Assembly (NCBI RefSeq): GCF_003334355.1
Contig: NZ_QOWP01000050.1
Length of the DNA: 15,734 bases
Direction: 5' to 3' (one strand)
From: Escherichia coli
GTDB taxonomy: Bacteria; Pseudomonadota; Gammaproteobacteria; Enterobacterales; Enterobacteriaceae
The notes below the pieces were generated by a model that worked only from the letters and a program-made list of their open reading frames with translations, had not been told where the DNA came from and ran no database searches. Of this stretch, positions 10,836 through 10,890 are shown piece by piece. A program made the position numbers and the translations under genes. Position 1 is the stretch's first letter; each line of letters opens with the position of its first letter.

Positions 10836-10890
10836 CCCTGAATGTCAGTGCCAAAGACTGACAATTACCAAAGCAGCTATAGTACGGTGC

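Follow-up and report, generated by a model that had tools for sequence, protein, structure and literature searches.

The window analyzed here, a stretch of 15,734 nucleotides, is an Escherichia coli chromosomal segment that shares 99.8% identity with strain PSS-12 (over 1.2 kb) and approximately 97% identity with K-12. Its minus strand carries thiM (11688-12476); thiD (10891-11691), which encodes 266 aa and ends with the stop codon TGA at 10891-10893; yegX (10008-10826), which encodes a GH25 glycoside hydrolase and has its start codon at 10824-10826; and yegW/ggaR (9210-9956). Upstream of thiM, on the same strand, Rfam detects a TPP riboswitch (RF00059, 71 bits) at 12511-12607, and a promoter-like site, TTTACA-17-TACCAT (12633-12661, minus strand), has a predicted start that fits the published thiM transcription start site (TSS) at K-12 position 2183473 (window about 12626). 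A naRNA4/REP match (RF02564, 62.7 bits), which belongs to a REP-derived family of nucleoid-associated RNAs, is found by Rfam at 4586-4656 on the minus strand and sits just downstream of ORF 4687-5811—fbaB, as judged by gene order.

RefSeq starts yegX with the ATG at 10826, which AGGGA precedes by 8 nt, and not with the in-frame alternative at 10833-10835 on the minus strand, an ATG inside the helix referred to below as P3. With this start the spacer between thiD and yegX measures 64 nt, and the gap of 55 bp given in an earlier note on this DNA has to be corrected accordingly. In the window strain yegX is a pseudogene because Gln76 is replaced by a TAG codon at 10599-10601 on the minus strand (translation W*ERIDWQ versus WQERIDWQ in K-12), and RefSeq marks the same internal stop in PSS-12, the strain of 99.8% identity. 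Variants of the locus exist: the match to the E. coli sequence NZ_CP189662.1 ends at query position 787 and covers, besides yegW, no more than the 3′ portion of yegX, and one of 5,426 E. coli genomes has no match whatever to the locus.

The thiD–yegX spacer contains a palindrome at 10843-10863, located 27 nt past the thiD stop codon. On the plus strand it consists of TGTCAGT (10843-10849), GCCAAAG (10850-10856), and ACTGACA (10857-10863), that is, a perfect 7-bp inverted repeat around a 7-nt loop, and the earlier report of such a repeat between thiD and yegX is confirmed letter by letter. In the mRNA, which is read from the minus strand, the corresponding hairpin is UGUCAGU-CUUUGGC-ACUGACA, referred to as P2 in the following. 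Its stem is weak—with a predicted ΔG of −7.5 kcal/mol in the window allele, −6.3 kcal/mol in K-12, and 3 G-C pairs—and folding in a 137-nt context yields pair probabilities of 0.81 to 1.0. The sequence that follows on the 3′ side of the palindrome on the transcribed strand is UUCAGGGAUGAAACC, or UUCAGGGAUGAAACCAAUG in its mRNA form; it lacks a U-run, as had been stated before. Each of about 5,000 E. coli genomes contains the palindrome at a single place. A search of positions 10700-11000 against Rfam, at the gathering threshold and at E ≤ 10, assigns the spacer to no family and returns only chance-level snoRNA matches (E = 0.57 and 7.1). By itself, the palindrome is not beyond chance, since perfect 7-bp inverted repeats whose loops measure 3-10 nt number 15 in the window versus 10.1 ± 3.4 in first-order Markov shuffles; its significance depends on conservation and context.

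The context is a set of three roughly concentric inverted repeats, with the palindrome (I3, 7/7) as the innermost: I1 spans 12 nt, 11 of them complementary (92%), at 10819-10830 and 10867-10878; I2 spans 9 nt, 8 of them complementary (89%), at 10804-10812 and 10895-10903. The predicted minus-strand fold of the window allele is a three-helix structure composed of P1, P2, and P3, with an energy of −31.8 kcal/mol and a z-score of −3.0. The outer helix P1 is formed by a 5′ strand, UAGCUGC-U-UUGGU (10867-10879, minus strand), which is part of the invariant non-coding segment CCGTACTATAGCTGCTTTGG, and a 3′ strand, ACCAA-U-GCAGCUG (10818-10830, minus strand), which includes the yegX AUG (10824-10826) and codons 2-3. 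P3 is a hairpin of 4 bp, UUCA-GGGA-UGAA (10831-10842, minus strand), and features the yegX Shine–Dalgarno (SD) sequence GGGA (10835-10838) in its loop. A further helix, P0, may lie outermost and would join the final codons of thiD, together with the first stop-codon base (10893-10903, minus strand; CGCCUGGUGGU), to yegX codons 5-8 (10804-10814, minus strand).

The architecture of P1, P2, and P3 is the minimum free energy or centroid fold in 7 of the 7 alleles and species tested, with z-scores between −1.7 and −2.5 in single folds, and is also the RNAalifold consensus at −29.7 kcal/mol. For P0, RNAalifold pairs columns 12-19 with columns 100-107; the changes there are almost all of the type G-C/G.U or U-A/U.G, and the support for this helix is weak, since pairing survives any transition opposite G or U. 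The z-scores across alleles, −1.7 to −3.0, are modest. In addition, folding is no worse on the antisense strand (z = −4.1), which makes the z-score useless as a test of the strand; the sense strand is favored because it is transcribed and because several natural variants are G.U pairs on this strand. As judged by these predicted folds, P2 is probably the apical hairpin nested in a larger, Escherichia-specific fold of the thiD–yegX mRNA.

Position variability was determined in 7 Escherichia sequences and pair counts in 16 distinct Escherichia alleles, with additional spacer alleles taken from a metagenome scan anchored on the yegX start. In the 7 sequences, 15 of the 64 spacer positions are variable, compared with 54% of the third codon positions of thiD and yegX. 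These 15 positions are concentrated just past the thiD stop, in the loop of P2, in the linker, and in two stem pairs, and the segment CCGTACTATAGCTGCTTTGG, with the 5′ strand of P1, is variable at 0 of 20 positions. Five pairs of P2 are invariant across the 16 alleles, and the variable positions of its arms—4 of 14—form the remaining two pairs: pair 2, which is G-C in 7 alleles, U-A in 5, G.U in 1, and G.A in 3; and the loop-closing pair, which is C-G in 9, U-A in 3, U.G in 2, and C.A in 2. Pairing is kept in 97.3% of cells over the 16 alleles versus 21 to 43% with the partners slid, and the covariation score is reached by 1 of 500 shuffles, a measure that is inflated by the relatedness of the sequences. 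E. coli and the cryptic-clade species carry different fully paired forms of pair 2, G-C and U-A, respectively, with E. albertii as a mismatched intermediate, a pattern that suggests pairing was restored more than once. The P2 covariation goes back to very few independent events, in closely related genomes.

The other helices vary less. In the 16 alleles, all four pairs of P3 (4/4) and the 5′ strand of P1 are invariant, and the 3′ strand of P1 shows only wobble-compatible changes. P1 lends no covariation support to the fold since its pairing never varies: its 3′ strand is constrained regardless by start codon, SD sequence, and coding sequence, and the invariance of its 5′ strand could have another cause than pairing. 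Synonymous variants of yegX retain P1—CUG/CUA gives U.G or U-A, and the exchange of codon 3 from CUG to UUG in the DE17 allele turns a G-C pair into G.U. The GGA of the yegX SD sequence is likewise retained, even in the UUCAUGGAUGAA variant. Conservation in related genomes, which the earlier note had named as a check on the palindrome, is thus found for the stem across Escherichia species, with compensatory and wobble changes; this agrees with the note's own suggestion of a weak RNA structure, which would here be nested in a larger conserved fold.

Allele frequencies are counts of exact 64-nt spacer matches over 5,426 complete genomes of E. coli. The K-12 allele, TGTCAGC/ACTGACA, has 6 bp and a C.A mismatch and is present in 3,219 genomes (59%). 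The DE17 allele, TGTCAGC/GCTGACA, is perfect with a closing C-G pair and is present in 999 genomes; the allele TGTCAGT/ACTGACA, perfect with U-A, in 297 genomes; and the variant of the latter found in the window, also perfect with U-A, in 10 genomes. The U.G form, with a wobble at the closing pair, is found in 19 genomes, and the LF82 allele, which is E. albertii-like and has the G.A mismatch, in 3 genomes. The perfect palindrome is therefore a minority state in E. coli. All four combinations of the loop-closing pair occur within this one species, which means that this pair is weakly constrained at best.

The predicted energetics point to a masked yegX start codon. Opening the AUG region of yegX (−2 to +5) has a predicted cost of 8.3 kcal/mol, the highest of the 15 genes in the window, the other 14 ranging from 0.2 to 3.5 kcal/mol. 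For the wider region from −15 to +12, the predicted cost is 13.6 kcal/mol for yegX versus 12.7 kcal/mol for the riboswitch-controlled thiM. It is P1 that pairs the yegX AUG and codons 2-3, with predicted pair probabilities of 0.72 to 1.0, and complementing its 5′ strand in silico lowers the AUG opening cost from 9.0 to 0.9 kcal/mol. With the palindrome deleted in silico, the cost is 9.9 kcal/mol; with the palindrome broken, 7.6 kcal/mol; and with the palindrome intact, 9.0 kcal/mol. These shifts are so small that P2 is not needed in silico for occlusion of the AUG. The earlier proposal that the element insulates thiMD from yegX is accordingly plausible in one part, as a translational insulation by P1, but not in the other, since the 7-bp palindrome has little effect on occlusion in silico. 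Two ways of opening the fold were considered and find no support in the predictions. Translational coupling through a ribosome that terminates at the thiD stop codon would leave the AUG closed, with a cost of 7.9 to 12.1 kcal/mol when the mRNA is held single-stranded to stop+12 or stop+15; the cost drops in silico only when the mRNA is forced single-stranded to stop+18 or more. An RNA thermometer is not supported either, with predicted AUG costs of 10.2 kcal/mol at 25 °C versus 8.4 kcal/mol at 42 °C for the window allele and of 13.8 versus 10.7 kcal/mol for K-12.

Transcript data bear on which messages would carry the fold. A consensus scan for promoters and terminators found neither in the thiD–yegX spacer and recovered the thiM promoter (12661-12633). 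In Kim 2012 (PMC3415461), no TSS is recorded in the spacer; two starts of 2 reads each are assigned to yegX, both within thiD, at 224 and 485 nt upstream of yegX, and thiM has a start of 55 reads. In this one published data set, the complete fold is consequently part of the detected transcripts that reach yegX. Neither the SMRT-Cappable-seq nor the Cappable-seq supplement has an entry for these genes or coordinates. Transcription of the annotated thiMD operon probably continues into yegX. An in vitro SELEX peak of the sigma-70 holoenzyme, of low resolution, was assigned to the thiD/yegX spacer by Shimada 2014 (PMC3946193), with no promoter motif listed, and the weak starts inside thiD could explain it. 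A promoter in the spacer itself, with TACTAT as the −10 element, would account for both this peak and the invariant 5′ flank; it was rejected as the main reading on the lack of a −35 or TG motif, the negative scan, and the lack of a TSS in the table of Kim 2012.

The reading favored here, with a probability of roughly 0.45, places the palindrome at the apex of a conserved intercistronic fold whose outer helix masks the yegX start and thereby damps yegX translation on read-through from thiMD. The sequence with its nested inverted repeats, their pattern of conservation, and the predicted energetics lead us to infer folding in vivo and a lowered translation of yegX. The spacer of the sense mRNA would fold into three helices with the palindrome, as P2, at the apex. 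P1 would pair 10879-10867 with 10830-10818 and so lock the yegX AUG and codons 2-3, and P3 would hold the SD GGGA in the loop of its 4-bp hairpin. Every detected yegX message begins upstream—in thiD or at the thiM promoter—and hence would include the fold. The predicted outcome is an initiation of yegX that is low and uncoupled from thiMD expression. The part of P2 itself is the least certain step of this mechanism: P2 may be architectural, by closing the junction, or may have a separate role in stability or processing.

The origin of the spacer is relevant to the first of the alternatives. In a scan of one genome per species, yegX is confined to Escherichia: E. coli, E. whittamii, E. albertii, and two more Escherichia species-level genomes. 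The nearest YegX homologs found outside Escherichia belong to Bacteroidota (Pedobacter, Sphingobacterium, Pontibacter) and have 41 to 52% identity, which suggests a horizontal acquisition of yegX. In Salmonella, thiD is followed directly by yegW after 36 nt (2802-2837 of that locus), and in Citrobacter freundii after 52 nt (2802-2853 of that locus), in both cases without the hairpin; the element is tied to yegX and is no ancestral thiMD terminator. By comparison of these gene orders, yegX was inserted between thiD and yegW together with its 64-nt spacer, and only in Escherichia. The ancestral thiD–yegW spacer (…TATACT…CAGGAAAAAGAyAAATG) persists in E. coli as the yegX–yegW spacer (9957-10007, minus strand), and its TATACT (9988-9993) is the −10 element of the yegW promoter. 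A yegW TSS of 46 reads was mapped by Kim 2012 (PMC3415461) to a G that matches window position 9980, so that yegW is served by a promoter of its own directly past yegX. In the non-coli Escherichia species, the hairpin's right arm and the next bases, GCTGAAATTCAGGG (window 10836-10849), resemble the Citrobacter spacer GCTGAAGATTCAGCGG (2826-2841 of that locus); part of the new spacer, palindrome included, may stem from a local duplication or rearrangement of ancestral spacer sequence, for which this likeness is only suggestive.

A phage or plasmid origin was checked for the spacer and the 5′ end of yegX: there is no phage match, and the matches labeled as plasmid are E. coli chromosomal segments. 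The same region is found, identical to the K-12 thiD–yegX spacer and yegX 5′ end, in a sequence of 275 bp labeled Bacillus sanguinis (NZ_BOQB01000727.1), which is almost certainly an assembly contamination. A 458-aa hypothetical protein of Cichorium endivia comprises ThiM and ThiD domains, with 89% identity to enterobacterial ThiD, and is probably a bacterial contamination mis-called as a gene fusion.

On this background the palindrome could be a functionless by-product of the yegX insertion, for example of a local duplication of the ancestral spacer, with its apparent conservation because of kinship and of the constrained SD and start neighbors. We consider this somewhat unlikely. The restriction of yegX and its spacer to Escherichia is in line with it, as are the likeness of GCTGAAATTCAGGG to the Citrobacter GCTGAAGATTCAGCGG, which suggests rearranged older sequence, and the fact that perfect 7-bp inverted repeats are no rarer in the window than by chance. 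It would also accommodate the mismatched majority allele of E. coli, the G.A mismatch of LF82, E. albertii, and E69, and the dispensability of the hairpin for AUG occlusion in silico. Against it stand the arms, in which the changes (4/14) are confined to two pairs, next to a loop and linker that are mostly variable and third codon positions that vary at 54%, and also the G-C and U-A paired versions with their E. albertii intermediate, an apparent repeated restoration of pairing.

The palindrome could instead have an independent function in RNA stability or processing: as a barrier to 3′–5′ exonucleases that defines or protects a thiMD 3′ end, after Rho-dependent termination or cleavage, or as an RNase target that splits thiMD from yegX. 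Such elements typically lie where this conserved stem lies, 27 nt past a stop codon; its loop is free and a U-tract is lacking, and an occluded yegX start would leave the yegX RNA untranslated and exposed to Rho. Nevertheless, this role is unlikely in view of the weak stem (−6.3 to −7.5 kcal/mol, 3 G-C pairs) and of Salmonella and Citrobacter, in which thiD has no equivalent hairpin. Mapping of transcript ends downstream of thiD, which the earlier note had called for, points the same way: the accessible part of the Adams 2021 Term-seq tables lists no 3′ end at the palindrome or otherwise in or near the spacer (2,183,4xx-2,183,7xx; within several hundred nt), which is weak evidence because thiMD is poorly expressed under those conditions.

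A more elaborate version of start-codon masking would make the three-helix spacer a dedicated regulatory leader, of joint Escherichia origin with the inserted muramidase gene, that gates YegX via a trans-acting factor on the AUG-masking helix, with the palindrome as the recognition hairpin. Candidates for a factor that opens or locks the helix may be an sRNA, an RNA-binding protein such as CsrA, or a nuclease. CsrA sites feature a GGA in the loop of a short hairpin that overlaps the SD sequence, and their SELEX consensus is RUACARGGAUGU. P3 is similar in that AUUCAGGGAUGA (10831-10842, minus strand) agrees with this consensus at 10 of 12 positions and places an invariant GGA in a loop at the SD sequence; it differs in being a single GGA site, and any SD sequence of the AGGA type would look similar. 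In the accessible part of the CLIP and RNA-seq tables of Potts 2017, yegX is absent and thiD is unmarked as a CsrA target. Gating of this kind is improbable; if true, it would also couple a cell-wall hydrolase to thiMD read-through, and hence to thiamine control, since the detected yegX transcripts start upstream.

The earlier note had also offered a protein-binding palindrome, that is, a DNA operator of a dimeric transcription factor that controls yegX or blocks read-through from thiMD. The perfect dyad symmetry in the window strain would suit an operator, and the sigma-70 SELEX peak of Shimada 2014 (PMC3946193) makes some transcription-related binding nearby possible. Yet the half-sites change symmetrically, from TGTCAGT to TTTCAGC, and the loop drifts in sequence and in length, with a spacing of 7, 8, or 9 nt among species, which fits a hairpin and not a protein operator of fixed spacing. 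Nor is there a related site at any promoter elsewhere in the window: a search for a second copy, as expected for an operator of YegW/GgaR, yielded only matches with 3 mismatches, at 13683-13703 and 14068-14088, and none in the fbaB/yegT spacer. ChIP-chip of GgaR/YegW gives a single target region, the fbaB/yegT spacer and within yegT (PMC10819704), and the thiD–yegX spacer holds neither a promoter-like site nor a recorded TSS. An operator is therefore a very improbable reading, and this proposal of the note is not upheld. A weak or non-canonical intrinsic terminator of thiMD is likewise very improbable, in agreement with the note's doubt that the hairpin is a canonical terminator: it does lie shortly past the last gene of the annotated thiMD operon, but its stem is short and of low stability, a U-tract is absent in 16 of 16 alleles, the scan (at least 5 T in 8) is negative, and the accessible part of the Adams 2021 tables has no mapped 3′ end for it.

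If the favored fold, with P1 over the yegX start and the palindrome at its apex, works as predicted, it would be a case in which a short RNA structure silenced a potentially harmful gene after its horizontal acquisition and insertion. The gene in question, yegX, encodes a membrane-anchored GH25 muramidase, is placed behind a housekeeping operon without an intervening terminator, and is almost unstudied; the fold gives a testable handle on it. The practical weight is that of a small, ordinary regulatory feature whose perfect palindrome is a minority allele. No description of a thiD–yegX spacer structure was found in the accessible part of the literature.

Several known systems can be compared with this fold. 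REP/BIME elements are, like the thiD–yegX palindrome, short intergenic palindromes between co-directional genes; the latter is single-copy, has no Rfam match, and is unrelated in sequence, and a repeated extragenic palindrome of the REP/BIME or ERIC type was rejected on its one place per genome and the negative Rfam result. Intrinsic terminators share the stem-loop shortly past a stop codon and differ in their U-tract, their stronger stem, and a mapped 3′ end, which the accessible Term-seq tables do not list here. In classic translational coupling, the terminating ribosome opens the structure at the downstream start; in contrast, a ribosome that terminates at thiD is not predicted to open P1. 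The thiM TPP riboswitch, which belongs to the same transcription unit, is likewise a cis-acting RNA that masks a start site, at a similar predicted opening cost (12.7 kcal/mol, versus 13.6 kcal/mol for yegX). Unlike this riboswitch, the thiD–yegX fold has no Rfam family, spans 64 nt with three short helices, and has no sign of a ligand pocket. Start-occluding mRNA structures in polycistronic messages are known from MS2 phage RNA and from the infC-rpmI-rplT operon, in which long-range pairings mask downstream starts. The thiD–yegX structure is of a similar type in that an upstream segment of the spacer is predicted to pair with the AUG region of the next cistron at a high opening cost, and, as in this type, it lies wholly within the intercistronic spacer. 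By analogy, the fold would resemble many known start-site-occluding structures of polycistronic mRNAs—an ordinary kind of cis-acting RNA structure.
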